Assembly: GCA_943372485.1 (NCBI GenBank)
Contig: CALRYW010000007.1
Span: forward strand, 4,936 to 68,935
Source: Bosea thiooxidans
Lineage (GTDB): Bacteria; Pseudomonadota; Alphaproteobacteria; Rhizobiales; Beijerinckiaceae
Length of the DNA: 64,000 nt
Reading direction: 5' to 3'
Below, one piece after another: positions 9,933-31,703 of this stretch. The notes under the pieces are model-generated. The model searched no databases, was not told the DNA's origin, and saw only the letters and a list, made by a program, of their open reading frames with translations. Every line of letters begins with the position of its first letter. The stretch's first letter is position 1. The position numbers were made by a program, and so were the translations under genes.

Positions 9933-10823
9933 ATGCAGGATCAGATCTATCTGACGACCGAGGAGGCGGCCGGTTACCTCCGGCTGAAGGAGCGCAAGCT
10001 CTACGACCTCGTCGCCAGCGGTGGGGTGCCCTGCACCAAGGTCAGCGGCAAATGGCTGTTTCCGCGCGCGGCGCTCGACCGCTGGCTCGAGGCAGGGCTC
10101 TCGCGGCCGGAGGGGATGCAGCCTTTGTCCCCGCCGCCGATCATCGGCGGCAGCCAGGATTCGCTGCTCGAGGTGGCGGTGCGCGACTCGGGCTGCGGGC
10201 TGGCCCTGCTGGCCGAAGGCTCACAAGCCGGGCTCGACCGGCTGGTGCGCGGCGAGGTCGCGATCGCGGCCATCCATCTCCATGCCACGCCCGACGATGA
10301 CGAGGCCAATCCGGCGGCCGTGATGGCGGAATCAGGCCTCCATGATGCCGTGGTGATCGGCTTCGCGCGCCGCGAGCAGGGTCTTCTGGTCGCGCCCGGC
10401 AATCCGCTCGGGCTCACGGGGATCGCCGCTGCGGTCGAGCAACAGGCGCGGTTCGCCCGTCGCCAGAAGGGCGCCGGGGCGCAGCTCCTGCTCGAGAGCC
10501 TGATCGCCCGCGAAGCCGTGCCGGCGCAGGCCATGGTGCTGGCCGAGGGCATCTGCGCCACGGGCCAAGATCTCGCGCTCGCGATCCGCACCGGGCGCGC
10601 CGATTGCGGCATCGCGTCGCGGGCGATCGCCAGCGCGTTTGGGCTCGATGTCCTGCCGCTGGTCTGGGAGCATGTCGATCTGGTGATGCGCCGCCGGACC
10701 TATTTCGAGCCGGCCGCGCAGAGCCTGCTGGGCTGGATGCGCGGCACGGCGATGGCCGCCCGGGCGCGCGAGCTCGGCGGCTACGATCTGTCGCGCAGCG
10801 GGGCGGTGCGGCTGAACCGCTGA
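9933..10823 (+). CDS. Excisionase-type HTH (HTH_17) + PBP_like molybdate/tungstate-responsive regulator
   Basis: N-terminal YLTTEEAAGYLRLKERKLYDL...GKWLFPR; C-terminal GSQD, REQGLLV, RQKGAG PBP-like motifs; divergent from tupB. Confidence 0.85.
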   Translation: MQDQIYLTTEEAAGYLRLKERKLYDLVASGGVPCTKVSGKWLFPRAALDRWLEAGLSRPEGMQPLSPPPIIGGSQDSLLEVAVRDSGCGLALLAEGSQAGLDRLVRGEVAIAAIHLHATPDDDEANPAAVMAESGLHDAVVIGFARREQGLLVAPGNPLGLTGIAAAVEQQARFARRQKGAGAQLLLESLIAREAVPAQAMVLAEGICATGQDLALAIRTGRADCGIASRAIASAFGLDVLPLVWEHVDLVMRRRTYFEPAAQSLLGWMRGTAMAARARELGGYDLSRSGAVRLNR

Positions 10824-10832
10824 GAGCGCCCG

Positions 10833-11969
10833 TCAGGTCAGGGCGCCACGTCCCGCGATCGGCCAGAGCGCCTCGACATGGGCGTCCGGCGTGTGCAGGC
10901 CGCGGACACCGACATACCAGTCGTGCAGGTTCACCGTGGGGTCGCAATGGCCCGGGATCAGCAGCAGCCGGTCGCCGCGATGCGGCAGGGCGATCGGATC
11001 GCCCGTCAGCACGCCATGCTCGTCGGAGGGCTTGGTGTAGATCACGCCCTCGCGCCGGAACGGCATCGGCATGCCGGAATCGACCGAGGCTGCCTTGTGG
11101 CCGGCATCGACGACGGCCCGGTCCGGTACCGGCTTGCTCATCACCCCGGTGAGGATGAACAGCGCATGCTCGAAGGTGCGGAAGGGCGTGCCGTCGGCCT
11201 GGCGGTTGCGGGCATAATCGGCGTCCATGAAGATGTAGGAGCCGGCCTGGATCTCGTTCCAGATGCCGGACTGGCTCTCGATCTCGAAGGTGCCGGTGCC
11301 GGCGCCGCCGACCACGGCGCAGGCGAGGCCGGCCTGCTGCAGCCGCTCCACCGTGTTGCGGGTGCCGAGCGCGGCGCGCTCGATCGCCTCGCGGCGCTCG
11401 TCGATGGAGCGCATGTGCTGGGCGGTGCCGTGATAGGCCTGCAGCCCGCCGAAGCGCAGCGTGTTGCTGCGCGCGACCGCCTCCGCCAGCCGCACCGCCG
11501 TCTCGCCGGGCGCGACGCCGCAGCGGCGGCCACCGATATCGATCTCGACGAGCACATCGAGCACGACATCGTGGCGGGCGGCGGCCTCGGCCGCCTCGCG
11601 AATGCCGTCGAGATGATCGACGCAGAGCCCGATCCTGGCCTGGCGCGCGAGTTTCGCCAGCCGGTCGAGCTTGGCGGCGCCGCTGATCTCGTTGCTCACG
11701 AGCACGTCGGTGACGCCGCCCTCGACCAGAACCTCCGCCTCGGAGACCTTCTGGCAGCATTGGCCGACCGCGCCATGGGCGATCTGGCGCAGCGCGATCT
11801 CCGGGCTCTTGTGGGTCTTGGCGTGGGGTCGCAGCCGGACGCCATGTCCCTGCGTATAGGCCGCCATGGTGACGAGGTTGCGCTCGAAGGCGTCGAGATC
11901 GAGGATCAGCGCCGGTGTGTCGATCTCGCCGAAACTCTGGCCGGGCTGGGCCGGCGGGTGCAGGGGCAT
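10833..11969 (-). CDS. DSD1-family PLP-dependent enzyme (D-threonine aldolase / 3-hydroxy-D-aspartate aldolase-like)
   Basis: LRPHAKTHK PLP-Lys motif, GLQAYHG, IQAGSYIFMD, SDEHG, PGHCDPTVNLHD; start trimmed to MPLHPP. Confidence 0.9.
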   Translation of the reverse strand: MPLHPPAQPGQSFGEIDTPALILDLDAFERNLVTMAAYTQGHGVRLRPHAKTHKSPEIALRQIAHGAVGQCCQKVSEAEVLVEGGVTDVLVSNEISGAAKLDRLAKLARQARIGLCVDHLDGIREAAEAAARHDVVLDVLVEIDIGGRRCGVAPGETAVRLAEAVARSNTLRFGGLQAYHGTAQHMRSIDERREAIERAALGTRNTVERLQQAGLACAVVGGAGTGTFEIESQSGIWNEIQAGSYIFMDADYARNRQADGTPFRTFEHALFILTGVMSKPVPDRAVVDAGHKAASVDSGMPMPFRREGVIYTKPSDEHGVLTGDPIALPHRGDRLLLIPGHCDPTVNLHDWYVGVRGLHTPDAHVEALWPIAGRGALT

Positions 11970-12081
11970 GGTCTGTCGCGCTTTCCTGAATCGGTCGCGC
12001 CCATGGGACGCCAGCTTCTTGTCCGGAGCAAGACCCGGCCGGCCGTAGCGCTCGCTCCGGCGCCGTGATAGGTCGCGCGCC

Positions 12082-20560: not shown

Positions 20561-21604
20561 TCACCGCCAGGTCACGGGGCCGCCGCGGCGCGGGCCGGGC
20601 TTGACGCCGCCATTGGCCTTGAGGCCGCGCAGGATCTTCTCGGGCGTGATCGGCAGCTCGTCGACGCGCACGCCGACCGCGTTGTAGACGGCGTTGGCGA
20701 TCGCCGGCAGGACCGGATTGGCGCACATCTCGCCGGGCCCCTTGCCGCCATAGGGCCCGTCGGGCGCCGGGCGCTCCAGAACCGTGACGTGATAGGGCGC
20801 GATCTCGCCCGGCCCCGGCATCAGGTACTCGTTGAAGTCGCGCGGGCCATGGGCGGTGTCGGGATAATAGGGCTCGGGCGTCTCGTAGAGGGCGTGGCTC
20901 ATGCCCATCCAGGCCCCGCCGACGAGCTGCTGCTCGACCATGCGCGGATTGATTACCCGGCCGAGCTCATAGGCGCTGGTCATCCGGAGCACCTCGACCT
21001 CGCCGGTCTCGTCGTCGACGGCGACGTCGGCCACCAGGCAGGCATGGGCGAAGGCGGTGTTGGGGTTCATTTCGCCGGTTTCGGCATCCACCGCCGAGAG
21101 CGGGATCAGGAAGATGCCGCGCCCGGCGATGGTCTTGCCCTGCTTGAACTGCGCCGCCTGGGCGGTGGCCTTGACCGTGATCGAGCGCGAGGGCGCGCCG
21201 CGGACATGGATGTTGCCGCGCCCGTCGGTGACGAGGTCGCCGGCATCGACCTCGAGCTCCTCGGCCGCCGCCTCCAGCAGCACGCCGCGGGCCTCGCGCG
21301 CCGCGACGATGATGGCGTTGCCCATGCGATGCGTGCCGCGCGAGGCAAAAGAGCCCATGTCATGGGGGCCGGTGTCGCTGTCGGCAGTGTCGACATAGAC
21401 GTCCTCGACGGGCACGCCGAGCGTTTCCGCCGCGATCTGCCGCGAGACCTGCTTCATGCCCTGGCCGAGATCGATCGCCGAGAGCGCCACGGTGAACTTG
21501 CCGTCCGGGTTGGAATGGATCAGCGCCTGGCTCGGATCGCCGCCGAGATTCATCCCGATCGGGTAGTTGACGGACGCCATGCCGCGACCTTCGTGACGGG
21601 CCAT
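20561..21604 (-). CDS. Molybdenum hydroxylase, C-terminal ('medium') molybdopterin subunit
   Basis: Start trimmed to MARHEGRG; DLGQG, DMGSFASRGT, GQLVGG-like QQLVGGAWMG, GKGPGE with catalytic Glu, VDELPITPEKIL. Confidence 0.88.
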   Translation of the reverse strand: MARHEGRGMASVNYPIGMNLGGDPSQALIHSNPDGKFTVALSAIDLGQGMKQVSRQIAAETLGVPVEDVYVDTADSDTGPHDMGSFASRGTHRMGNAIIVAAREARGVLLEAAAEELEVDAGDLVTDGRGNIHVRGAPSRSITVKATAQAAQFKQGKTIAGRGIFLIPLSAVDAETGEMNPNTAFAHACLVADVAVDDETGEVEVLRMTSAYELGRVINPRMVEQQLVGGAWMGMSHALYETPEPYYPDTAHGPRDFNEYLMPGPGEIAPYHVTVLERPAPDGPYGGKGPGEMCANPVLPAIANAVYNAVGVRVDELPITPEKILRGLKANGGVKPGPRRGGPVTWR

Positions 21605-21605
21605 G

Positions 21606-23393
21606 TCAGCGCCTCCTGCCGAAGACGGATGAGAAGCGCACCGCGCCATGCTGGGTCTGCGCGGGTGCCGCCGGCGCCGGAGCTGGCGCGGGCGAAGGCG
21701 GCGTCGGGGGCGGCTGATAGGGTGGCGGCTGCTGGCCAGATACCGGCTGGTAGGGCGAGGGGGGCTGCGGCGGCGGAGAGGCCGGCTGCGCTGCGTAGGA
21801 CGGTGGCACGGCCGTTGCGGGGCGCGGCGCCTCGTAGCGCGGCACTTGCGTCGGTGCGGCACGCCCGTCGCGCGCGCCCTCCATCACCGGCTGCTTGCTC
21901 AAGGCGATGCGGGAGGTGCCGGCCGGCAGGGTCTGCGTCGGGCCTGAGTTGCGGCTGTCGGGCCGACCGATCTGGCCGCGCGCATCGAGCACGGTCGCTG
22001 GGATCTGCCCTCGCTCGCCGGCGCCGCCGCCGGTCAGGGACGACTGGCGCTGCGCCTGCTCGGAGATCGGCCAGTTCGCCTTCCCGGCCGCGACCTGGAC
22101 GCATTCGATCAGCGCCGTGTTCGAGGCCTTGCGCCGATGCGGCTTCATATCCCCATCGCGATAGGCGTTGAGGATCCGGAACTCCATCGGGTCCAGGCCG
22201 GCCGCTTCGGCCAGCCGGTCCATCTGGACCTCCAGCGCAAAATCCACCGCCGTAATGCCGAAGCCGCGCATGGCGGTGGAAGGGCAGCGATTGGTGTAGG
22301 CGACATGGACGTCGGAGGCGACGTTGGGGATCCAATAGGGGCCGGGTAGATGCGCTGTGCACTTGATCGCGGCATAGCTCGACAGCCGCGTATAGGCGCC
22401 GGCGTCGAAATAGCTGCGGATGTAGCGGGCGACGATGCGCCCATCGCGCATCAGCCCATCCTTGATGTAGATGCGCTCGGCCCCGCGCGGTGAGCCGGAG
22501 AGCATCTCCTCCTCGCGATCGAGCACGAAGCGGACCGGGCGCCCCGTCACCATCGCGCCCAGGACCGCCAGCGGCTCGGTCAGCGAGTCGACCTTGCCGC
22601 CGAAGCCGCCGCCGACCGTGCCGCCGATGAAATGCAGGCGGTTGGACTCGACCGCGACGATCTTCGCGGTGGTGCCGAGCGCGAAGAACAGACCCTGCGC
22701 GCAGGAATGGACGACGAAGCGGCCATTCTGCTCGGGCGCGGCGATCGAGCCGTTGGTCTCGGTCGGCGCATGCTCGATCGGTGACATCTGGTAGCGGTGC
22801 TCCAGCACCATGTCGGCGCCGGCAAAGGCGCGCTCGACATCGCCGAAGCGCAGCTTCTGATGGTCGAAGCGCTCGTGATACTCGAAGTAATTGGCGGGAT
22901 AGGTCTCGTTGACGACGGGCGCGCCGGGTTTGAGCGCCTCCTCGACATCGAAGACGGCGGGCATCGGCTCGTAGTCGATCCGGACCAGCGTCTTCGCCGC
23001 CAGCGCCTGCGCCTCGCTTTCGGCGATGATCGCGACGACGGGCTCGCCGACATAGTGCACCTTGTCGACCGCCAGCGAGGGCTCGTCGTCCTTGCCGAAA
23101 TTGATCAGGCTCAACAGCGTGTTCTTGTTCACCGGCACGTCCGCCGCGCGCAGCACGCGCTTCACGCCCGGCGCGCGCGCCGCGGCCGAGACGTCGATCG
23201 AGCGGATGCGGGCGCTGGCATGGGGGCTGCGCACCACCTTGAGATGCAGCAGGCCGTCGAAGCCATGATCGTCGAAATAGCGCGTCAGCCCGGTGACGTG
23301 ACCGGGCATGTCCTGACGCTGGATGCCCTTGCCGACGACGTTGAGATTGTCGTCGCGCTCGTCGGCGAAGAGGTCCTTGCGCATTTCCAGCAT
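21606..23393 (-). CDS. Molybdenum hydroxylase, N-terminal ('large') molybdopterin subunit with Pro-rich C-terminal tail
   Basis: Start trimmed to MLEMRKD; VVRSPHASARI, VGEPVVAIIA, GGGFGGK, DAGAY, AMRGFG; last ~100 aa are P/Q/A-rich. Confidence 0.88.
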   Translation of the reverse strand: MLEMRKDLFADERDDNLNVVGKGIQRQDMPGHVTGLTRYFDDHGFDGLLHLKVVRSPHASARIRSIDVSAAARAPGVKRVLRAADVPVNKNTLLSLINFGKDDEPSLAVDKVHYVGEPVVAIIAESEAQALAAKTLVRIDYEPMPAVFDVEEALKPGAPVVNETYPANYFEYHERFDHQKLRFGDVERAFAGADMVLEHRYQMSPIEHAPTETNGSIAAPEQNGRFVVHSCAQGLFFALGTTAKIVAVESNRLHFIGGTVGGGFGGKVDSLTEPLAVLGAMVTGRPVRFVLDREEEMLSGSPRGAERIYIKDGLMRDGRIVARYIRSYFDAGAYTRLSSYAAIKCTAHLPGPYWIPNVASDVHVAYTNRCPSTAMRGFGITAVDFALEVQMDRLAEAAGLDPMEFRILNAYRDGDMKPHRRKASNTALIECVQVAAGKANWPISEQAQRQSSLTGGGAGERGQIPATVLDARGQIGRPDSRNSGPTQTLPAGTSRIALSKQPVMEGARDGRAAPTQVPRYEAPRPATAVPPSYAAQPASPPPQPPSPYQPVSGQQPPPYQPPPTPPSPAPAPAPAAPAQTQHGAVRFSSVFGRRR

Positions 23394-23404
23394 GTTGGCC
23401 TCCC

Positions 23405-23887
23405 TCAGGCGCGGCGCAGGCCGGGCGAACCGGCGGCGGCGAGGATCGCGGCGACGATGGGTTCGTAGCCGGTGCAGCGGCAGATGTTGCCGCTGATCGC
23501 CTCGATGACCTCGTCGCGGGTGGGGTTGGGTTTTTTGTCGAGCAGGGCGCGCGCCGCCGTCAGCATGCCCGGCGTGCAGAACCCGCACTGCGCGGCGAAA
23601 TGCTCCATGAACTGCACCTGCAGCGGGTGCAGCTCGGGTCCATTGGCCATCCCGGAGGCCGTCTCGACCTGCCTGCCCTCGCAGGCGACCGAAAGCGTCA
23701 GGCAGGAGAGATGCGGCTCGCCATCGATCAGCACGGTGCAGACGCCGCAGGCTCCCTGGCCGCAGCCATATTTCGGGGCGAAGTCGCCCAGGCTCCGGCG
23801 CAGCGTGTCGAGCAGCGTCTCGGGCGCATCGACGAAGGCGGCGCGGTCGGTGCCGTTGAGGCGGAACTGGACGGGGATCTTGGCCAT
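23405..23887 (-). CDS. Molybdenum hydroxylase 2x[2Fe-2S] subunit
   Basis: KYGCGQGACGVCTV...SCL and QCGFCTPG...NICRCTGY. Confidence 0.95.
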   Translation of the reverse strand: MAKIPVQFRLNGTDRAAFVDAPETLLDTLRRSLGDFAPKYGCGQGACGVCTVLIDGEPHLSCLTLSVACEGRQVETASGMANGPELHPLQVQFMEHFAAQCGFCTPGMLTAARALLDKKPNPTRDEVIEAISGNICRCTGYEPIVAAILAAAGSPGLRRA

Positions 23888-23896
23888 GCGCGCTCC

Positions 23897-24718
23897 TCAG
23901 CGGGGCTCGCCGGCGAGCAGCCGGCCGAGATGGACGGGCAGCACCTCGCGGCGATACCACTCGCTGGCGATCGCATCGGTGGCCGGGCGGCAGCCTTCGA
24001 GCGCGGCCTGTTTTGCGGCGGCGATGGCCGCGGCATCGAGTGCCTTGCCCTCTAGGGACCGCTCGACGCCGCGCGCGCGGATCGGCGTCGGCGCCATCGC
24101 GCCATAGGCGACCCGCGCCTGGCTGACGCGCCCGCCCGCCTGCGGCAGATGCGCGGCGATCGACAGCACCGAAATCCCCTTCGGCTTGACCCGGCTGATC
24201 TTGCGGAAGTGGAAATCGCCGGGGCTGGCGGGTCGCGGGAACTGGATGGAGGCGACCAGCGCCGGCCCCATGCGCTCGCGGGCCGCCAGGAACTCCTCCA
24301 GCGGAGTCGCCCGCCCGGAACCGAAGCCAGACTGCACCACGACCTGTGCATCGAGCGCCAGCAGCGCCACGGTGAAATCGCCGTAAGGCGTGGGTGCGAA
24401 GAGATTGCCGCCGACACTCGCCATGTTGCGCACGGCCGGGCCGCCAATCGCACGGGCCGGCGCATGGAGAAAGGCGAGCTCGCGGCTGGCCAGGATCTGG
24501 CCCATCGTGACCCCGCCGCCGAACTCGATGCGGGCACCATGGGCCTCGATCCGCCGGAAGGCGGGATCGGTGACGCGCAGCAGCGTGCCCTCGGTCAGCC
24601 GGCCCTCGTTGACGTCGCGCATCACCAGCGTGCCGCCGCCGATCAGCACCGCCTGCCGGTCACCGGACAGGATGCCGGCGGCTTCGGAGAGCGTCGCGCA
24701 GCTTCTCACAGCGAGCAT
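23897..24718 (-). CDS. Molybdenum hydroxylase FAD-binding subunit
   Basis: LIGGGTLV, IGGPAVRNMASVGGNL, VAYGAMAPTPIRA, IASEWYR. Confidence 0.92.
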   Translation of the reverse strand: MLAVRSCATLSEAAGILSGDRQAVLIGGGTLVMRDVNEGRLTEGTLLRVTDPAFRRIEAHGARIEFGGGVTMGQILASRELAFLHAPARAIGGPAVRNMASVGGNLFAPTPYGDFTVALLALDAQVVVQSGFGSGRATPLEEFLAARERMGPALVASIQFPRPASPGDFHFRKISRVKPKGISVLSIAAHLPQAGGRVSQARVAYGAMAPTPIRARGVERSLEGKALDAAAIAAAKQAALEGCRPATDAIASEWYRREVLPVHLGRLLAGEPR

Positions 24719-24719
24719 G

Positions 24720-25172
24720 TCAGACCGCCTCCCCCGCGAGTTCCGGCAGGCGGCGTACCGCCTCGATGCCGTTGGTGTAGACCTCGTCGCCGACGATGCG
24801 GGCGAGCTCGGCCTCGCGGCCGCGGGGCGTGGTGAATCGGCTTTCCCAGTGCCAGAAGGCGCGGTTGCCGTCGGTCACCGGCAGCAGCCGGACATGGGCG
24901 ACGTAGTTGAAGAGCGGGATCGGCGTATCCAGCAGGCAGTAGCTGAAGGTCATTTCGAGGTCCGACAGCGTGAGGAGCTGCTCGCGCAGCTCGCTGCCGT
25001 CCTGCAGCCAGAAGCGGCGCACGCAGCCGATCCGGTCGGACGGGTGGCCGCGCTCGATCTCGCTCCTCGCGACGATCGGGTGCCAGCGGTCATGGCCGTT
25101 GAAGTCGCGCAGCACCGACCAGAGCAGGTCGACCGGCGCGTCGATGATCGTGCTGCGGACGACGTGAGGCAT
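24720..25172 (-). CDS. SRPBCC (Polyketide_cyc2 / MxaD / PYL-like) protein, copy 2
   Basis: LWSVLRDFNGHDRWHP, IGCVRRFWL, LREQLLTLSD, NYVAH. Confidence 0.88.
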   Translation of the reverse strand: MPHVVRSTIIDAPVDLLWSVLRDFNGHDRWHPIVARSEIERGHPSDRIGCVRRFWLQDGSELREQLLTLSDLEMTFSYCLLDTPIPLFNYVAHVRLLPVTDGNRAFWHWESRFTTPRGREAELARIVGDEVYTNGIEAVRRLPELAGEAV

Positions 25173-25175
25173 GCC

Positions 25176-25613
25176 TCATCCCCCGAATGCGCGCTTGAGG
25201 GCATCGAATCCGCCCTGGAAGACATTGGTGCCGATGCCCTCGACCAGCTCCGCCTCGCGCTCCGGCGCACAGTCGAAATCGGCCGACCATTCGATGAAGG
25301 TACGCTCCTGGTCGGTGATCGGCGTGAGCCGCAGCGTCGCAACGTAATTCGTCAGCGGCATCGGCGAATCCAGGATCGAGTAGGTGCAGAACATGTCGTA
25401 GTCGGAAAGGCCGAGCAGCTGCTCGCGCAGGCGATCGCCGCTGCGCAGCGAGAAGGCGCGGATGCAGCCGACCTTGTCGGCCGGCTCGCCGTTTTCGATC
25501 CGGCTTTCGGCGATACGCGGATGCCAGTTCGGCAGGCCGTTGAAATCGCGTACGCGGGCCCAGACCTTGGCGGCGGGGGCGGAGATGACGCTGGAGACGT
25601 AGACGCGGGCCAT
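25176..25613 (-). CDS. SRPBCC (Polyketide_cyc2 / MxaD / PYL-like) protein, copy 1
   Basis: VWARVRDFNGLPNWHP, VGCIRAFSL, LREQLLGLSD, NYVAT; clearly paralogous to its neighbour. Confidence 0.88.
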   Translation of the reverse strand: MARVYVSSVISAPAAKVWARVRDFNGLPNWHPRIAESRIENGEPADKVGCIRAFSLRSGDRLREQLLGLSDYDMFCTYSILDSPMPLTNYVATLRLTPITDQERTFIEWSADFDCAPEREAELVEGIGTNVFQGGFDALKRAFGG

Positions 25614-25625
25614 GATGCTGCAGCC

Positions 25626-28526
25626 TCAGGAGGTCTTGCCGGGGCCGGCTTCGGGGGCAGGGCCTTCGCCACCGGCCTTCGCATCGCCACTGCCTTTCGG
25701 CTTGGCTGGTTGGGCCTCCTTGGCGACGCGCTGCATGTCGGAGGCCTCGCGCATCAGCCCGCCCATCTTGGCGAGGTTGCCGCCTTCGATGCCGATCTCC
25801 TTCAGCACCTGGTCGATCATCGGCGCCTGGACGCGGTAGCGCAGCGCCGACTCGATCACCTCGTCGGTCGGCGAGCGCGCCGCGCCGCCGGCCCCGCCCG
25901 AGCCGCCGCCTCCGGCGAGTCCGTCGACATGCAGGATGCGGATGCCCTCGATCTTCTCCATCGGCTTGACGCTCTCGCGCACGATGCCCTCGATCTTGTC
26001 GAGCAGGCGGCGCCGGAACAGCCCGTAGCGGGCGCCGTCGCTGAGCACGTTCTCGGCTTCGTAGAGCAGCTTCTGCGCCTCGGCCTCGACGGTCCGGCGG
26101 ACTTTGTCGGCGGCAGCGGCGATATTGGATTCCTCCGCCGCCTTCTCGGCGAGTAGCACCTCGACGGTCTTGCGGCGCTTGGCGCCTTCGCTCTCGCGGA
26201 TCGTCTTGACCTGCTCCTCGGCCTCGACCGCCTTGGCGCGGGCGCTCTCGGCACTGGCCTGGGCGGCGGATTCCTCCAGCGACTTGGTGTAGAGCGCGAT
26301 CGCCTTGTCCATGGCGGCCGCCTCGACATCCCGCTCGCGGGCGATCTCCAGCTTGCGCAATTCGCGCTGGCGCCCCACGCGGGCCTCGTCGAGCCCGCGA
26401 TCCGACGAGATGCGGGCCCGCTCGACCTCCTCGTTTGACGCGATCTGCGCCTCCTGAAGGGCTTGTGTCCGGGCGATCTCGAGCTGTTCGAGCGCGCGCC
26501 GCCGCTCGATCCGGGCGGCCTCCAGGGCCTGTTCGCGGACGATGTCGACGGACTCGACCTGCTGCTTCGCCGCGATCTCGGCCTGGCGCAGCGCGCTGTC
26601 GGCGTCGGTGCGCTCGACCCTCTTGGCGGCGAGCACGATGGCTCGGTCCTCTTCCGCGACCTCGACGGCCTTCTTCTGGGCGATCTGCAGCATCTCGCGG
26701 GACTTCACCGAGTTGATGCGCTCTTCGTCCAGGCCAAGTTCCGTGGCGATGCGCCGGCGCTCGACGGTGTCGCGGCGCTTCAGTTCGGCGGTGTCGAGAT
26801 CGGCGTTGCGGCGGATCTCCAGCTCCTTCGTGGCGAGTTCCGCTGCGATGCGCTCGGCGGCGACGACCTTCTCCTGGGCGATGCGCGCGGCTTCCGTCGC
26901 CTCGCGCGCGGCGATTTCAGCGGTGTCGATCGCCTGGTTGCGGGCGATTTCGAGATTGCGGACCTCCTCGTCGCGGCGGATGCGCTCGCTGGCGACGCTC
27001 CGTTCCTGGCTGATGCGCGCCTTCTCGACGCTCTCGCGCGCCGCGATCTCGGCCGCCTCGATCGTCTCGGTCTGCTCGATCTCGAGCAGGCGCTTGCGCT
27101 GCTCCAGTGCGATGCGCTCGGCCGTCAGCACGTTTTCCTGAGCGATGCGGGCCTTCTCGACCGCCTCGCGGGCGGCGATCTCGGCTTCGTCGAGGGCGCG
27201 GTTGCGCGCGATGCCGAGTGCGCGGATTCGCTCCTCTTGGCCGATTCGGGCGGTGTCGACCGCCTCGCGCGCCGCGATGTCCTCCTGGTCGAGCACGCGG
27301 GTGCGCTCAATCTCGCGGTTGCGGATCTCTTGCTCGCGGATGATGCGCTCGGCGCTGATCGCGGTTTCCTGCAGGATGCGCGCCTTCTCGGTCGCCTCCC
27401 GCGCCGCGATCTCGGCGGCTTCGAGCGTCTGCGCGCGCTCGATTTCCTTCTGGCGGATGTCGCGCTCCGAGGCTATGCGGGCGGCGCTGATCGCCTGTTC
27501 ATTGGCGATGCGGGCCTTCTCGATCAGCTCGCGCGAGGCGATTTCGGCCTCCTCGACGGCCTGCGTACGCGCGATTTCCTGCTGGCGAATGTCGCGCTCG
27601 GAGGCGATGCGCGCCTCGCTGATCGCGCGCTCGTTGGCGATGCGCGACTTCTCGATCTCCTCGCGCGAGAGGATCTGCGCCTGCTCGGCTTCCGTATCGC
27701 GGGCTGCGCGCTCGCGGGCGATTTCGGCCCGCTGCACGGCGCGCTTGATCTCGATCTCGCGCTGCTGTTCGAGCCGCGCCGCCTCGCTGTCGCGCTCGAT
27801 GTCGAGCGCCTGGCGCTCGGCTTCGAGATTTCGGGTGCGGATGCGGATCATCGAGTCCTGCTCGATGTCGTTGCGCAGCTTCCGCTTATCCTCGATCTCC
27901 TCGATGATCCGCGTCAAACCGGCGGCGTCGAAGCGGTTGGACGGGTTGAAATACTGCAGATCGGTCTGGTCGAGATCGGTGAGCGCGACCGATTCCAGCA
28001 ACAGGCCGTTCTGGTCGAGCGCCTCGGCCGCAGCCTCCTTGACGCGCTGGACATACATTCCGCGCTGCTCGTGCATCTCCTCCATCGTCATCTCGGAGGC
28101 GACGGTGCGCAGCGCCGAGATGAACTTGCCCGAGAGCAGCGCATGGAGTTGGTCGGGCTGGAGCGTGCGGCGGCCGAGCGTGGCGGCGGCGACCGAGACC
28201 GAGTCTCGCTCCGGCTTCACCCGGACATAGAACTCGGCGTCGATGTCGACGCGCATCCGGTCGCGGGTGATCAGCGCGTCGTTGCTGGCGCGCGTCACGG
28301 CGAGTTGCAGCACGTTCATATTGACCGGCGTGACGTCGTGGATGATCGGCAGAACGAAGGCGCCGCCATTGATCACCACCCGTTCGCCGAACAGGCCGGT
28401 GCGGACGAAGGACACCTCCTTCGACGAGCGCCGATACAGCCAGTTCACCAGATAAACGACGATGGCGATGACGATCACCGCCACGATCAGCCAGAGGATC
28501 AGCGATCCGATCAGCTGTCCCGTCAT
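25626..28526 (-). CDS. Giant flotillin/SPFH-family protein (YqiK-like) with repeat-expanded coiled coil
   Basis: N-terminal TM helix, SPFH domain (FVRTGLFGERVV, ALITRDRMRVD, NGLLLESVALTDLDQT, NPSNRFDAAGLT), long E/R/A/I repeats, flotillin C-terminal PMEKIEGIRILHVDGL...ALRYRVQAPMIDQVLKEIG. Confidence 0.9.
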   Translation of the reverse strand: MTGQLIGSLILWLIVAVIVIAIVVYLVNWLYRRSSKEVSFVRTGLFGERVVINGGAFVLPIIHDVTPVNMNVLQLAVTRASNDALITRDRMRVDIDAEFYVRVKPERDSVSVAAATLGRRTLQPDQLHALLSGKFISALRTVASEMTMEEMHEQRGMYVQRVKEAAAEALDQNGLLLESVALTDLDQTDLQYFNPSNRFDAAGLTRIIEEIEDKRKLRNDIEQDSMIRIRTRNLEAERQALDIERDSEAARLEQQREIEIKRAVQRAEIARERAARDTEAEQAQILSREEIEKSRIANERAISEARIASERDIRQQEIARTQAVEEAEIASRELIEKARIANEQAISAARIASERDIRQKEIERAQTLEAAEIAAREATEKARILQETAISAERIIREQEIRNREIERTRVLDQEDIAAREAVDTARIGQEERIRALGIARNRALDEAEIAAREAVEKARIAQENVLTAERIALEQRKRLLEIEQTETIEAAEIAARESVEKARISQERSVASERIRRDEEVRNLEIARNQAIDTAEIAAREATEAARIAQEKVVAAERIAAELATKELEIRRNADLDTAELKRRDTVERRRIATELGLDEERINSVKSREMLQIAQKKAVEVAEEDRAIVLAAKRVERTDADSALRQAEIAAKQQVESVDIVREQALEAARIERRRALEQLEIARTQALQEAQIASNEEVERARISSDRGLDEARVGRQRELRKLEIARERDVEAAAMDKAIALYTKSLEESAAQASAESARAKAVEAEEQVKTIRESEGAKRRKTVEVLLAEKAAEESNIAAAADKVRRTVEAEAQKLLYEAENVLSDGARYGLFRRRLLDKIEGIVRESVKPMEKIEGIRILHVDGLAGGGGSGGAGGAARSPTDEVIESALRYRVQAPMIDQVLKEIGIEGGNLAKMGGLMREASDMQRVAKEAQPAKPKGSGDAKAGGEGPAPEAGPGKTS
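26325..27686 (-). repeat. Intragenic 132-bp (44-aa, 4x11) tandem repeats in the flotillin gene
   Basis: Units such as EEAEIASRELI-EKARIANEQAI-SAARIASERDI-RQKEIERAQTL; 27686-26664 = 341 aa = 31 consecutive 11-mers (seven 44-aa units plus one 33-aa unit), with more degenerate units to ~26325. Confidence 0.88.
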
Positions 28527-28554
28527 GTCCTCATCCTCCCACCCGTGGCCCGGG

Positions 28555-29430
28555 TCACTTCGCCTTGCCCGCCTTGCCGGCGTGCTTTTTGTTCGTGAGA
28601 TCGCGGCCGATGCGCTTGAAGGCGCGCGTCTGCTCGCGGATCGCGACCTCGACCGGCAGGCGCTCCATCGAGGAGGCGCCGTAGAAGCCGTGGCAGTGCT
28701 CGGTGTGCTTCATGATGAAGTCGGCATCCGCCGGCTCGGCGACCGGGCCGCCATGCACGAGGATGAGCGCGTCCTTCTTGACCGCGAGCACGGCCGCGGC
28801 CCAGGCATCGACCAGCGCCGGGCAGTCGGCGAGCTTGAGCGCCGTCTCGGCGCCGATCGCCCCGCCGGTTGTCAGCCCGAGATGGCAGACGATGATGTCG
28901 GCGCCCGCCTTAGCCATGGCGCGCGCATCGGCCTCGCAGAAGACGTAAGGCGTCGTCAGCAGGCCCTTCGCATTGGCGAGACGGATCATCTCGACCTCAA
29001 GGCCGAAGCCCATGCCGGTCTCTTCGAGGTTCTTGCGGAAGATGCCGTCGATCAGCCCGACGGTCGGGAAGTTCTGCACCCCGGCGAAGCCGATCCGCGC
29101 GACCTCGTCGAGGAAGACGTCCATCCGCCGGAACGGATCGGTGCCGCAGACGCCGGCGATCACCGGCGTGGTCTTCACCACTGGCAGCACCTCGGCCGCC
29201 ATCTCCATCACGATGGCGTTGGCGTCACCATAGGGCATCAGCCCCGAGAGCGAGCCGCGGCCGGCCATGCGGTAGCGCCCCGAATTGTAGATCACGATGA
29301 GATCGATCCCGCCGGCCTCTTCGCATTTGGCCGACAGCCCCGTGCCTGCACCCCCGCCGACGATCGGCTCGCCGGCCTTCACCATTGCCTGGAAGCGCTT
29401 CAGCAGGCTCTTTTTGTCGAAGCTCGCCAT
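28555..29430 (-). CDS. Phosphoenolpyruvate-hydrolase-like TIM-barrel protein (homologue of the Tm-1 C-terminal domain)
   Basis: Start trimmed to MASFDKK; [50 protein letters not shown]. Confidence 0.9.
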
Positions 29431-31703
29431 CAGGCCCCTCCAGCCTTCGCCCGCTCGCGCCGGCGCCCGGCATGCAGCGCGCGGAACTGCTGCACGAGGG
29501 CGGTGGCGAAGGCCGGATCGTTGATGTGATGCGGGCAGCGGATCAGCTGCCGCGTCGGCGTCTGGCGCACGGTCTGCTCCAGCGCCTGGAACAGGGCGGC
29601 ATCCGCGGCGGGATCGTGGAAGGGCTGGCCAGGCGCATCGAGCGCCGAGACGCCGCGCTCGGGCAGGAGGAAGCGCACCGGCCCCTCCATTAGGTTCAGT
29701 CGCTCGCCGATCCAGCGCCCCATCCGCGCATTCTCGTCCGCCGTCGTCCGCATCAGCGTGATCTGCGGATTGTGCGGATAGAGATTGCGGCTGCGATAGC
29801 GTTCCGGAACCGTCTCGGGCGCGAAGAAATTGACCATGTCGAGCGCGCCGACCGAGCCGATATAGGGAATGCGCGTGCGGATGATCGCGCCGAAGCGATC
29901 CTCCGTCGCCGGCAGGACGCCACCCATCATCAGGTCGCAGATTTCGGTGGTGGAGACGTCGATCACGGCGCCGACCAGGCCGGAGTCGACGAGCTTCTCC
30001 AGAGCGCGCCCGCCCGTGCCGGTGGCGTGGAAGACGAGCGGCTCCCATTCGGCCTCCAGCAGCTGCGAGACCTGCTTCACACAGGGGGTCGTCACGCCGA
30101 ACATGGTGAGCCCGACCAGCGGCTTTTCGGGCCCAGCGCGCCGCGTCGTCGCGGGCTTGGTCAGCTCGGCCAGCCGCGCCTTGGCCATCGCGGCCATCGC
30201 CCGCGCCCCGTTTCCGAGCACCAGCCGCGAGACCCGGTTGATCCCCTGCACATCGGTGACGGCATGCATCATCGTGATGTCGGCGGCGCCGACATAAGCC
30301 GCGACATCGCCCGAGGCCATGGTCGAGATCATCAGTTTCGGCAGCCCGATCGGCAGGGCCTGCATGGCGGGTGTCACCATCGCGGTCGCCCCCGAGCCGC
30401 CGGCGGAGATCACGCCGAGAACGCCCTGCTGGCGCGGCAGCCAGGCCTTGAACGCCTCTGTCATCGCCGCCACGGCCGCTCCGCGGTCGCCGGAGGCGAT
30501 GCCGGCCGAGCCGCGCGGATGGGCGAGCGCGATCTCCTGCGGGGTGACGTCGCCGCCGGCGCTGCGGCCCGAGGTCGAGATGTCGACGAGCCGCGCCCGC
30601 CCCCCCTCCGCCTGGATGAGATCGCGGATGAAGCGCAGCTCCTCCCCTTTGGTGTCGAGCGTACCGACGACGATGACATGCGGCTCGCCGCTGCCCGAGG
30701 GCGCATGGCGCCGGCCGTCCGCGACCCGGGCACCGTCGCGCGTCGCCAGCGTCGGGCGCGAGATCGTCCGCGCCTGGGCCTCGATCCGCGCCGCCGGGAC
30801 GGGCTGCGACCAGCGCGTCGGGATCACCGGATTGGCGTTGTAGACCCGCATCGGGCCGCTCGGCTGGGCAGGGGCGCGGGCCGTCCCGCTCTCCGACGTC
30901 GCCGCTGGTTCGGGCGCGCCGTCAGTTTCGTCATGGCTGTGCCGGCCGACGCCGAGCAGGCGCTGCTGCAGGTCGCGGTCGCCGGCCAGCGTCGCCGAGG
31001 CGATGATGCGGTTGATCCGGCCATTGACCATGATGGCGACCGGGTCCGACATTTCGGTCGCGACGCCGATGTTCTGCTCGATCACGAGAATCGCGACGTC
31101 GCCCTGCTCGGCGAGGCGCACCAGCATCTCCTCGACATGGGCGACGATGACGGGCGCGAGCCCCTCCGTCGGCTCGTCCATGATCAGCAGGCGCGGATTC
31201 ATCAGGAGCGCCCGGCTGATCGCCAGCATCTGCTGCTCGCCGCCCGAGAGCTGGGCGCCGCCATTGTTGCGGCGCTCCGCCAGCCGCGGGAAGGCTTCGT
31301 AGATCCGTTCCGGCGTCCAGGCCCCGCGCTTGGACCGTTGCATCAGCCGCAGATGCTCGTCGACCGTGAGCGAGCGCCAGAGCCGGCGACCCTGTGGTAC
31401 ATAGCCGATGCCGAGCCGCGCGATCTCGGCCGGGCTGCGCCCCGCGATCTCCTCGCCGAAGAAGCGGATCGAGCCCGAGCTGACCGGCACCAGCCCCATG
31501 ATCGCCTTGCACATGGTCGTCTTGCCCATGCCGTTGCGGCCGACCACCGAGAGCACGCCGCTTTGGAGCGTGAGGTCGACGCCCTGAAGCGCATGGGAGC
31601 GCCCATAAAACACGTTGAGACCGGCGATCTGCAGGATCGGCATGCCGACGCCGGGAGGGGCCTTGAGGCGCTCAGCCATGCCCGCCTCCGCCGTGACCGC
31701 CAC
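29430..31703 (-). CDS. LivF-type ABC ATPase fused to a Tm-1-like / UPF0261 domain
   Basis: aa ~20-250: [31 protein letters not shown]; linker; then [57 protein letters not shown]. One open frame. Start may be slightly downstream (MPILQ). Confidence 0.88.

Follow-up and report, generated by a model that had tools for sequence, protein, structure and literature searches.

A long-walled flotillin-family protein is a fixed component of a conserved importer-kinase gene module in Bosea and other Alphaproteobacteria

A 966-aa flotillin-family protein, encoded in the 64,000-nucleotide stretch of the Bosea thiooxidans genome that was analysed here (the window; GenBank accession number CALRYW010000007.1), was found to be an invariable member of a conserved module of genes for an importer, a kinase-like domain fused to its ATPase, a TIM barrel, SRPBCC proteins and an oxidoreductase. 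This protein has a wall roughly three times as long as is usual, and the reading preferred here, which is given a probability of about one half, is that it builds a tall helical barrel, one layer thick, against the cytoplasmic face of the membrane, scaffolding or enclosing the importer-kinase and the enzymes. The module is undescribed in the literature searched, where no paper joins flotillin with hendecad and where, going by titles and abstracts, papers on Bradyrhizobium and flotillin mostly concern plant flotillins or contain one passing mention.

The genes of the module are co-oriented, in the order LivF::UPF0261 fusion, PEP_hydrolase-like barrel, flotillin, SRPBCC proteins and oxidoreductase, and are located in the window as follows:

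29430–31703, minus strand: LivF-type ABC ATPase fused to a UPF0261 (Tm-1/MarK-like kinase) domain (Pfam; co-occurrence)
28555–29409, minus strand: PEP_hydrolase-like TIM barrel, directly upstream of flotillin in a conserved position (Pfam, E 5.8e-128)
25626–28526, minus strand: flotillin-family gene, an ORF of 966 aa plus stop codon (Pfam Band_7 and Flot)
24720–25613, minus strand: two anchor-less SRPBCC (Polyketide_cyc2) proteins of 145 and 150 aa, downstream of flotillin (Pfam)
20561–24718, minus strand: Mo-hydroxylase, with an FAD subunit, a 2Fe-2S subunit and a Mo subunit split as MoN and MoC (Pfam)
21609–22000, minus strand: Pro-rich C-terminal tail of MoN, ending in the conserved RFSSVFGRRR (21609–21638)

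This synteny is common to all 80 best genomic relatives (of more than 570) and to each Mo-type locus examined. The first-pass annotation of the sequence had proposed that the flotillin is dedicated to one enzyme system. Its restriction to one gene cluster was borne out in the 80 best relatives, but the Mo-hydroxylase is not an invariant partner, and sister modules with shorter coils have an SRPBCC::Zn-ADH fusion (ADH-type) in its place. The invariant partners are the Liv-type ABC importer with the LivF::UPF0261 fusion, the PEP_hydrolase-like barrel and the anchor-less SRPBCC proteins. The genes for the latter are conserved at every locus examined, and the Pfam match covers residues 1–143 and 1–141 of the two proteins, neither of which has a TM anchor. 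Across 401 evenly sampled genomes, all 17 LivF::UPF0261 fusions have this flotillin 3–5 kb downstream, versus none of about 33 stand-alone UPF0261 genes, making the fusion the most specific genomic partner of the flotillin. Canonical flotillins are without the module context, even when they are paralogues in one genome (L111 versus L099 in G281). No NfeD partner of the kind known from SPFH-NfeD operon pairs (YqiJK, QmcA-YbbJ type) is present beside the 966-aa flotillin, the sole NfeD match in the genome being on another contig (C40) by a stomatin-like SPFH gene, and NfeD was discarded as a distinguishing partner as it is not adjacent to either flotillin type in the genomes checked. A PEP_hydrolase::flotillin fusion (P0004) and a flotillin::SRPBCC fusion (P0005) were set aside as Rosetta-stone evidence, as they derive from contigs of low coverage in which many genes are broken up.

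A frameshift in the Mo subunit was ruled out, as the two-ORF layout recurs at three other loci (L001, L004 and L088). Nearly all Mo-type loci encode a MoN protein with a Pro-rich linker of 50–140 aa and a conserved RFSSVFG(T)RRR end, a terminal motif that was found in no other protein of the genome and in none of the ADH-type loci. The tail may serve as a tether with a docking motif; the length of its linker bears no relation to that of the flotillin coil, a point that speaks against the preferred reading.

The features of the flotillin gene and its product are:

28534–28539, minus strand: Shine-Dalgarno-like GGAGGA, 7 nt 5' of the flotillin ATG (read from the sequence)
28425–28520, minus strand: N-terminal TM helix, residues ~3–34, followed by RRSSKE (sequence; AF2 helix 3–34)
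27945–28403, minus strand: SPFH/Band_7 domain, residues 42–194 (Pfam PF01145, E 7.8e-18)
26049–27917, minus strand: Pro-free helical wall, residues ~204–826, ~56 hendecads (AF2 secondary structure; G/P map)
26673–27695, minus strand: strict hendecad array, residues 278–618, 31 units in ABCD super-repeats of 44 aa (periodicity, TRF, unit typing)
27189–27287, minus strand: the sole 33-aa super-repeat of three hendecads, lacking unit C, residues 414–446 (TRF, 99 nt; unit typing; 11-residue insertion at 430 in Bradyrhizobium orthologues)
26151–26672, minus strand: degenerate hendecads, residues 619–792, with phase shifts of +3, +4 and +4 (hendecad register analysis)
25788–26150, minus strand: Flot C-terminal domain, residues 793–913 (Pfam PF15975, E 5.1e-34)
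25629–25787, minus strand: Gly/Ala/Lys/Pro low-complexity C-terminal tail, residues 914–966 (sequence; AF2 pLDDT <50)

The ORF has a GC3 of 0.90 and a start Met that is invariant in orthologue alignments, and it is separated by 28 nt from the stop codon of the PEP_hydrolase-like gene and by 12 nt from the SRPBCC genes. These tight junctions, like the shared synteny, are counted in support of a dedicated association. In the protein, the N-terminal TM helix is followed by the SPFH domain, a Pro-free helix of ~620 aa and the flotillin C-terminal domain. As RRSSKE follows the TM helix, the positive-inside rule predicts a topology in which the bulk of the protein is on the cytoplasmic side. A phmmer search of PDB sequences with the full-length protein as query returned only spurious matches to leucine-rich repeats, produced by the repeats, and a fold search was therefore used instead. 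The best Foldseek matches were solved flotillin complexes (9l3g, 9bq2), with PHB, stomatin and HflK/C ranking next, and the SPFH part aligned with solved SPFH domains at TM 0.7–0.8. The Flot domain scored 117.5 bits against the Pfam cut-off of 27. The 966-aa protein is thus a member of the flotillin family in the SPFH superfamily, yet it is not a FloT orthologue, judged by its 35.1 bits against the FloT equivalog model (NCBIfam NF058507; cut-off 700).

The first-pass annotation had described a 966-aa flotillin with 31 consecutive hendecads, and this description was upheld by the ORF, the Pfam domains and the statistics of 2000 shuffles, which served as the null for periodicity. Self-identity has maxima at all multiples of 11, the highest being at lag 44 (0.35), with z-scores of 8.4 at lag 11, 17.5 at lag 44 and 2.2 at lag 7. 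In a register with Ile at a, Ile occupies this position in 30/32 units, with Ala at b in 20/32 and I, V or L at g in 26/32. The hendecad phase is continuous across residues 278–618 (341 aa, 31 hendecads), agreeing within 3 residues with the uninterrupted stretch of 341 aa previously placed at 27686–26664, and the one unit said to be shorter by exactly 11 aa corresponds to the single 99-nt period (33 aa) that TRF detected at 27143–27326. The degenerate units described after the array were also recovered past residue 618, where G711 is conserved. However, the first-pass annotation counted only the strict array of 341 aa, whereas the whole helical segment of ~620 aa amounts to ~56 hendecads. The remaining periods at the DNA level are 132 nt (44 aa) with 76–79% identity; as the repeats are alike only to this extent, they are old. 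The best explanation of the wall helix is that it grew to its present length by duplication of the 44-aa (4 x 11) unit.

Between the SPFH and Flot domains, the wall has a period of 11, is Ala/Glu-rich and is without a heptad signal. Hydrophobic power was found at periods 11/2 and 11/4 and was near absent at 11/3 and 7/2, and the helix shows a two-striped pattern (Ile at a, I/V/L at g) together with one face rich in Ala and one that is charged. Cryo-EM of a flotillin wall has revealed 44 adjacent helices that extend over 186 aa, lack heptads and make charge-charge contacts (PMC11260169), a description that the power at 11/2 and 11/4 and the two stripes fit. The hydrophobic pattern, which looks like the signature of a barrel wall and not of a bundle, is counted in support of the barrel. 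The best placed of the alternatives, though still unlikely, is an open scaffold or stalk that encloses nothing, in which a low-order bundle or open arc would use the coil as a tether or ruler keeping the C-terminal domain and bound enzymes tens of nm away from the membrane, or as a quinone conduit like HucM. The coil is indeed very long, uniform and Pro-free (no Pro in residues 200–800), the MoN tail is tether-like, the Foldseek matches include open, nautilus-like HflK/C assemblies (9cz2), and the barrel geometry raises a concern over lumen width. However, the wall helix has no single amphipathic face, and its power of ~0 at 11/3 is unlike that expected of 2–4-stranded coiled coils and of a HucM-type stalk. 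The SPFH and Flot end domains are also identical in kind to those of cage-forming flotillins, and each solved SPFH assembly among the Foldseek matches is a large ring or cage.

Besides Bosea, dozens of species of Bradyrhizobium and further Alphaproteobacteria have the same long form of flotillin. As the first-pass annotation had stated, typical bacterial flotillins are much shorter, at 535–630 aa in the even sample of 401 genomes. The coil, or spacer, is 586 aa in the Bosea protein, which is 2.5 to 4 times the length in YqiK/FloT-type flotillins (175–230 aa, in steps of 11). It is 176–304 aa in canonical flotillins without the module, 209–366 aa in ADH-type modules (209, 330 and 366 among the lengths) and 421–751 aa in Mo-type modules, where the mode is 586; the ranges of the two module types do not overlap. 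The longest relatives have 1125 aa and a spacer of 751, and 966 aa is the modal length in its clade and no extreme. The proposal of a dedicated structure had been made dependent on equally long versions not being routine in unrelated contexts; as long forms were found only in this gene cluster, it stands on this point. That coil length tracks the class of oxidoreductase (none, then ADH-type, then Mo-type) is also counted in support of the barrel. In the tree, the module flotillins are nested among canonical bacterial flotillins. The Mo-type flotillins form one clade, so that the link between long coil and Mo enzyme is, statistically, one event plus consistency within the clade.

Of the 82 Mo-type loci, 51, almost all of them from Bosea or Bradyrhizobium, share a spacer of 586 aa despite only ~65% identity between the two genera, and the 33-aa unit is located differently in each while the total length is equal. 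With one exception, orthologue indels are multiples of 11 (sizes include 11, 22, 44, 55, 77, 88 and 121), as the first-pass annotation had predicted, and the length variation maps entirely to the strict array (residues 278–618). Quantisation of the spacer by 11 residues is general among bacterial flotillins. As the 586-aa mode, the shifted 33-aa unit, the steps of 11 and the age of the repeats all point to it, selection on coil length is probable and is counted in support. These observations bear on a second, improbable alternative, in which the flotillin merely stabilises or clusters the ABC importer as a generic microdomain organiser, as has been proposed for FloT and FloA, and the extra coil is a tolerated repeat expansion of no specific function. 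In its favour, co-occurrence is tightest for the transporter fusion, a related flotillin (L105) adjoins Liv-type permeases in another context, and repeats are prone to expansion. However, tolerated expansion is difficult to reconcile with a length kept equal across diverged genera by differently placed units, with the near-exclusive steps of 11 in old, diverged repeats, or with the separate length ranges of the ADH-type and Mo-type modules.

A triple-layer wall of ordinary height, made of three ~200-aa helices running up, down and up, is very improbable, for although AF2 splits the helix into three nearly equal segments (204–415, 435–632 and 638–826), each near the canonical flotillin wall length of 176–231 aa, the monomer model is of low confidence (pLDDT 63, pTM 0.25), the two break points have no conserved Gly or Pro, orthologue indels are confined to one segment with no matching change in the others, and versions of 421 aa and 751 aa could not both be made of equal thirds of canonical wall length. 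The AF2 monomer was too uncertain to tell whether the helix is continuous or folded back, and conservation and indel mapping were used for this purpose.

Under the preferred barrel model, the N-terminal helix and an SPFH ring would anchor the flotillin to the cytoplasmic face of the inner membrane, as in solved SPFH proteins, and the oligomer would be a right-handed barrel made of one layer of parallel helices, which the Flot C-terminal domain would close. Within the wall, the uniform array of hendecads would be a straight section, its height fixed by the number of 11-residue quanta (1.65 nm each), giving a wall contour of ~90 nm versus 28 nm in human flotillin. The barrel would surround or scaffold the importer-kinase and hold the TIM barrel, the SRPBCC carriers and the Mo-hydroxylase, the last tethered by its C-terminal peptide, at the membrane, where import, phosphorylation, hydroxylation and quinone reduction would be coupled locally; a taller wall would accompany a larger enzyme set. 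The partners, by analogy, suggest a need for membrane proximity, in that the SRPBCC proteins are anchor-less here and the MoN tail is tether-like. As the SRPBCC proteins match Polyketide_cyc2 and not the CoxG family, a role for them as quinone shuttles would be by analogy. We know of no precedent for a barrel with 600-aa walls, and with near-axial helices a Mo-hydroxylase of ~300 kDa might not fit into the lumen unless the subunits are numerous. It is doubtful, though conceivable, that the module forms a new bacterial compartment, a vault-sized SPFH barrel of several megadaltons and tens of nm that would enclose a substrate-phosphorylating importer, SRPBCC proteins as free carriers of quinone or ligand, and a peptide-loaded Mo-hydroxylase, its height tuned by 11-residue quanta to the enzyme set.

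The best structural match is the eukaryotic flotillin-1/2 complex (9BQ2, 9L3G; PMC11260169), which shares the SPFH domain, a non-heptad Ala/Glu/Arg-rich wall and the Flot oligomerisation domain, and whose right-handed single-layer barrel is consistent with a hendecad period. However, the wall is ~620 aa here versus 186, the anchor is a TM helix and not acylation, and the Bosea protein is presumably a homo-oligomer and is encoded within a predicted catabolic operon. Bacterial YqiK/FloT-type proteins have the same domain order and 11-residue quantisation of the spacer, but lack its extra length and the fixed importer-kinase/SRPBCC synteny. HflK/C-FtsH, stomatin-AQP1 and prohibitin-m-AAA are SPFH cages around specific membrane-protein clients, which would make the Liv-type importer and its fused kinase the analogous client of this flotillin. 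In contrast to those cages, the client is here proposed from synteny alone, the candidate cargo includes soluble enzymes and the wall is far taller. An SRPBCC protein also adjoins a CoxLMS-type Mo-hydroxylase in the CoxG-Mo-CODH quinone shuttle and in the 3-hydroxypyridine dehydrogenase HpdA1-4. CoxG (PMC12202499) and HpdA3 (bioRxiv 10.1101/2020.01.08.898148) have their own TM anchors, and 3hpd also requires a kinase pair (bioRxiv 10.1101/2020.01.08.898148), whereas the SRPBCC proteins here are bare domains preceded by a flotillin gene, which neither described system has. Three further likenesses are in role only. The major vault protein has an SPFH-like shoulder but gave a weak partial Foldseek match (TM about 0.1), and Pfam found no MVP repeat domains in the 966-aa protein. 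The MoN tail, a disordered linker with a short conserved end, resembles encapsulin cargo peptides in form only, and no encapsulin or BMC shell gene is among the annotated neighbours. HucM is a helical stalk joining an enzyme to membrane quinone, but the two-striped pattern of the Bosea wall helix argues against the single hydrophobic seam expected of a HucM-like bundle.

The clients of bacterial flotillins and the determinants of SPFH cage size are open questions in the field. This flotillin family has specific candidate clients next door, namely the importer-kinase fusion, the SRPBCC carriers and the oxidoreductase, and the cluster thereby names likely clients of a bacterial flotillin for the first time. 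It also provides a natural series of wall lengths (209, 330 and 366, then 421 to 751 residues) in 11-residue steps, sorted by enzyme class. Work on the structure of human flotillin has reportedly led to the proposal that wall length sets cage size, an idea that is testable in culturable Bosea and Bradyrhizobium strains. If the barrel model is true, the family would be a handy ruler-like block for protein design.

The minus-strand open reading frame encoding the 966 aa flotillin has a GC3 of 0.90 in DNA of 69% GC, which matches the expectation for a real gene. The domains of the product were assigned using Pfam and the N-terminal helix from the sequence.

25626–28526, minus strand: flotillin open reading frame, 966 aa
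Residues about 3–34 of the flotillin: N-terminal hydrophobic helix, followed by RRSSKE
Residues 42–194: SPFH/Band_7 domain
Residues 793–913: flotillin C-terminal (Flot) domain

As the N-terminal helix is followed by RRSSKE, most of the protein would be cytoplasmic by the positive-inside rule. The protein scores far under the cut-off of the NCBIfam FloT equivalog, no NfeD partner gene was found adjacent to it, and it is the sole Flot-domain protein of its genome. The only NfeD-family match in the genome (contig C40, about 10736–12078) adjoins a gene for a stomatin-like SPFH protein, forming a classical SPFH-NfeD pair unrelated to the flotillin locus.

In the region between the two domains, self-identity has maxima at all multiples of 11 with the highest at lag 44 (0.35), and z scores against 2000 shuffles were 8.4, 17.5 and 2.2 for lags 11, 44 and 7, respectively. 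With Ile taken as position a of the 11-residue repeat (hendecad), 30 of the 32 units carry Ile at a, 20 carry Ala at b and 26 carry I/V/L at g; f and j are Ala-rich, and d, h and k are Arg/Glu. The phase is unbroken through residues 278–618 (341 aa, 31 hendecads), and the hendecads are grouped in 44-aa ABCD super-repeats, one of which has no unit C. The first-pass annotation had described a strict 11-residue periodicity, 44-aa super-repeats and one shortened unit, and every element of this description was confirmed by self-identity, shuffles and unit typing. The strict array of 341 aa also stood, but the helical segment is not confined to it and covers about 620 aa. Past residue 618 come three register shifts (+3, +4 and +4), which sum to 11, and residues 200–800 are Pro-free. 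The DNA repeats of the array are only 76–79% alike, indicating that the array is old.

The hydrophobicity spectrum has its power at periods 11/2 and 11/4 and is nearly empty at 11/3 and 7/2, thus the helix carries a pair of hydrophobic stripes, at a and g, and, unlike a classical coiled coil, no single amphipathic seam. Of its other faces, one is Ala-rich and one charged. A monomer modelled by AlphaFold2 from 25 orthologues, with low confidence (pLDDT 63, pTM 0.25), is predicted to be helical at 204–826 apart from two short breaks. When this model was compared with solved structures, the human flotillin complexes 9L3G and 9BQ2 matched best; prohibitin, stomatin and HflK/C came next, and the major vault protein was a weak match. 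By cryo-EM, the flotillin wall consists of 44 helices standing side by side over 186 aa as a right-handed, single-layer barrel; it has no heptads, charge-charge contacts hold it together, and the cage is 22 nm high (PMC11260169). The two-stripe repeat pattern found here agrees with this description. The window protein belongs to the flotillin family, and its wall is strictly hendecad and exceptionally long: counting 0.15 nm per residue, the helix contour is about 90 nm, whereas that of human flotillin is 28 nm.

Scanning a single genome from each species yielded at least 574 relatives of the flotillin. The 80 best are from Bosea (87–98% identity, which marks the window as Bosea DNA), Aquabacter, dozens of Bradyrhizobium species, Xanthobacteraceae, Rhizobium, Geminicoccaceae and others, and the same co-oriented cluster was present at each of these loci that had enough flanking DNA. 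The cluster begins with genes for a binding protein, an AraC regulator, LivH, LivM, a LivF::UPF0261 fusion, a PEP-hydrolase-like TIM barrel and the flotillin, continues with two SRPBCC proteins, an FAD subunit, a 2Fe-2S subunit and a split Mo subunit, and ends with an AAA ATPase, a VWA protein and hydrolases. At loci with gene calls, a LivG-type ATPase gene is located between LivM and LivF::UPF0261. The flotillin belongs to a conserved importer-kinase-SRPBCC-oxidoreductase module. The literature searched contained no description of an importer-kinase-flotillin module and no paper joining flotillin and hendecad.

In the gammaproteobacterial MAG GCA_012103455.1, the flotillin-to-isochorismatase part of the cluster occurs twice (loci L004 and L005) with matching gene coordinates, the upstream importer-kinase genes being kept in one copy and lost from the other. 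A DDE_3 transposase gene is found between the FAD and 2Fe-2S genes in each copy. An assembly labelled 'Frankia sp. RB7' (JAUEPE010000001.1; locus L055) has the full cluster; it nests within the Bradyrhizobium clade and is probably mislabelled or contaminated. A flotillin::SRPBCC fusion (P0005, locus L002) and a PEP_hydrolase::flotillin fusion (P0004, locus L003), both on low-coverage contigs with many fragmented genes, are most likely frameshift artefacts.

The Mo enzyme is a variable partner of the flotillin and the importer-kinase an invariant one. Family members of lesser length (689–735 aa) share the same core, consisting of the transporter, LivF::UPF0261, usually the TIM barrel, the flotillin and SRPBCC. 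In ADH-type modules, the core is followed by an SRPBCC::Zn-ADH fusion in place of the Mo-hydroxylase, and the TIM barrel had no match in three such loci (L086, L094 and L131). Among 401 evenly sampled alphaproteobacterial genomes, 49 encode a protein whose Flot domain exceeds the Pfam cut-off and 17 the LivF::UPF0261 fusion, with a same-strand Flot-domain gene 3–5 kb downstream in 17/17; none of the about 33 stand-alone UPF0261 genes in this sample has a Flot-domain gene in this position. The module context is absent from canonical flotillins (535–630 aa), even in genomes with both types.

29430–31703, minus strand: LivF-type ABC ATPase::UPF0261 kinase-like fusion, with its TIM-barrel partner next

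The one demonstrated activity of UPF0261 is that of MarK, which phosphorylates small aromatic compounds in an ATP-dependent manner (PMC12624787), and it is possible that LivF::UPF0261 couples substrate import to phosphorylation. At L086, L087 and other ADH-type loci, the second SRPBCC domain is joined to the N-terminus of a Zn-ADH/MDR-type oxidoreductase; the SRPBCC::Zn-ADH fusion implies direct cooperation of SRPBCC and enzyme.

A related flotillin at locus L105 (G073:C1, 6459–16049), whose coil measures 304 aa from a fixed anchor in the SPFH domain to another in the Flot domain (the spacer), is in another cluster and again adjoins Liv-type permeases. It is preceded by genes for two unusually long Liv-type permeases and a bacteriorhodopsin-like protein (PF01036), and followed by a 131-aa open reading frame of no assigned family and genes for an alpha/beta hydrolase, an MBL hydrolase and a TetR regulator.

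Spacers, measured in the same way, revealed that coil length is quantised in steps of 11 residues, with ranges that differ among enzyme classes.

Spacer lengths (aa) by class; the window protein has 586
Canonical flotillins: 176, 187, 198, 209, 220, 231 (11-steps), 282, 304; also 221 and 234, outside the 11-step series
ADH-type modules: 209, 330, 355, 366
Mo-type modules: 421, 506–509, 542, 553, 564, 586, 597, 619, 630, 641, 652, 696, 718, 751

Differences among Mo-type spacers are multiples of 11 save for 506 (80 = 77 + 3 below 586) and values from two error-prone contigs. In an alignment of 25 sequences, the coil indels were all inside the strict array; a single indel of 80 (77 + 3) aside, they were multiples of 11, from 11 to 165. 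The 586 class is the mode (51/82 Mo-type loci), hence the window protein has the usual length for its clade, in which others are longer. Bosea and Bradyrhizobium have the very same spacer length, 586, at about 65% identity, and the position of the single 33-aa unit differs between them. Together with the 11-step indels and the age of the array, this indicates selection on both phase and total coil length. In a tree from the globular domains, the nesting order was canonical flotillins, ADH-209, ADH-366 with ADH-330, and a single Mo-type clade (SH-aLRT 96); the link between long coil and Mo enzyme therefore reflects one origin and steady maintenance, not many independent events. At locus L093 (G399:C37), the N- and C-terminal parts of a Mo-type flotillin (spacer about 718) are in different frames, and this is either a pseudogene or an assembly error.

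The authors of the flotillin cryo-EM study proposed that wall length sets the size of the complex (PMC11260169). We consider it about an even chance (roughly 0.5) that the window flotillin forms a tall barrel at the cytoplasmic face, which scaffolds or encloses the importer-kinase and holds its soluble enzymes at the membrane. The uniform hendecad array, the site of all length variation, would be the straight section of the wall, and the phase-shifted stretch after it may be the passage into the cap. That the long helix instead serves as an open stalk or tether appears doubtful. That it only organises microdomains in a generic way, its repeats having expanded neutrally, is to be weighed against the selection indicated on phase and length and is somewhat more doubtful still, and a wall folded back into three layers is very improbable.

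CoxG, the SRPBCC partner of Mo-CO dehydrogenase, has its own TM helix as tether and is a quinone shuttle to the enzyme (PMC12202499). HpdA3, an essential separate SRPBCC subunit of 3-hydroxypyridine dehydrogenase, also has a TM segment, and a kinase pair is required in that system (bioRxiv 10.1101/2020.01.08.898148). In contrast, the two SRPBCC proteins of the window, encoded directly after the flotillin gene, are bare domains of 145–150 aa. In nearly all Mo-type loci among L001–L100, MoN, the N-terminal half of the naturally split Mo subunit, ends in a 50–140-aa Pro-rich linker and the conserved peptide RFSSVFG(T)RRR.

21606–22000, minus strand: MoN C-terminal tail, Pro-rich linker with RFSSVFG(T)RRR

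The peptide is unique in the 4.5-Mb genome and was not found in ADH-type loci, and the length of the MoN linker shows no relation to that of the flotillin coil. The tail has the form of a tether with a candidate docking motif. The bare SRPBCC domains and the MoN tail thus suggest a reason why these enzymes would need a scaffold.
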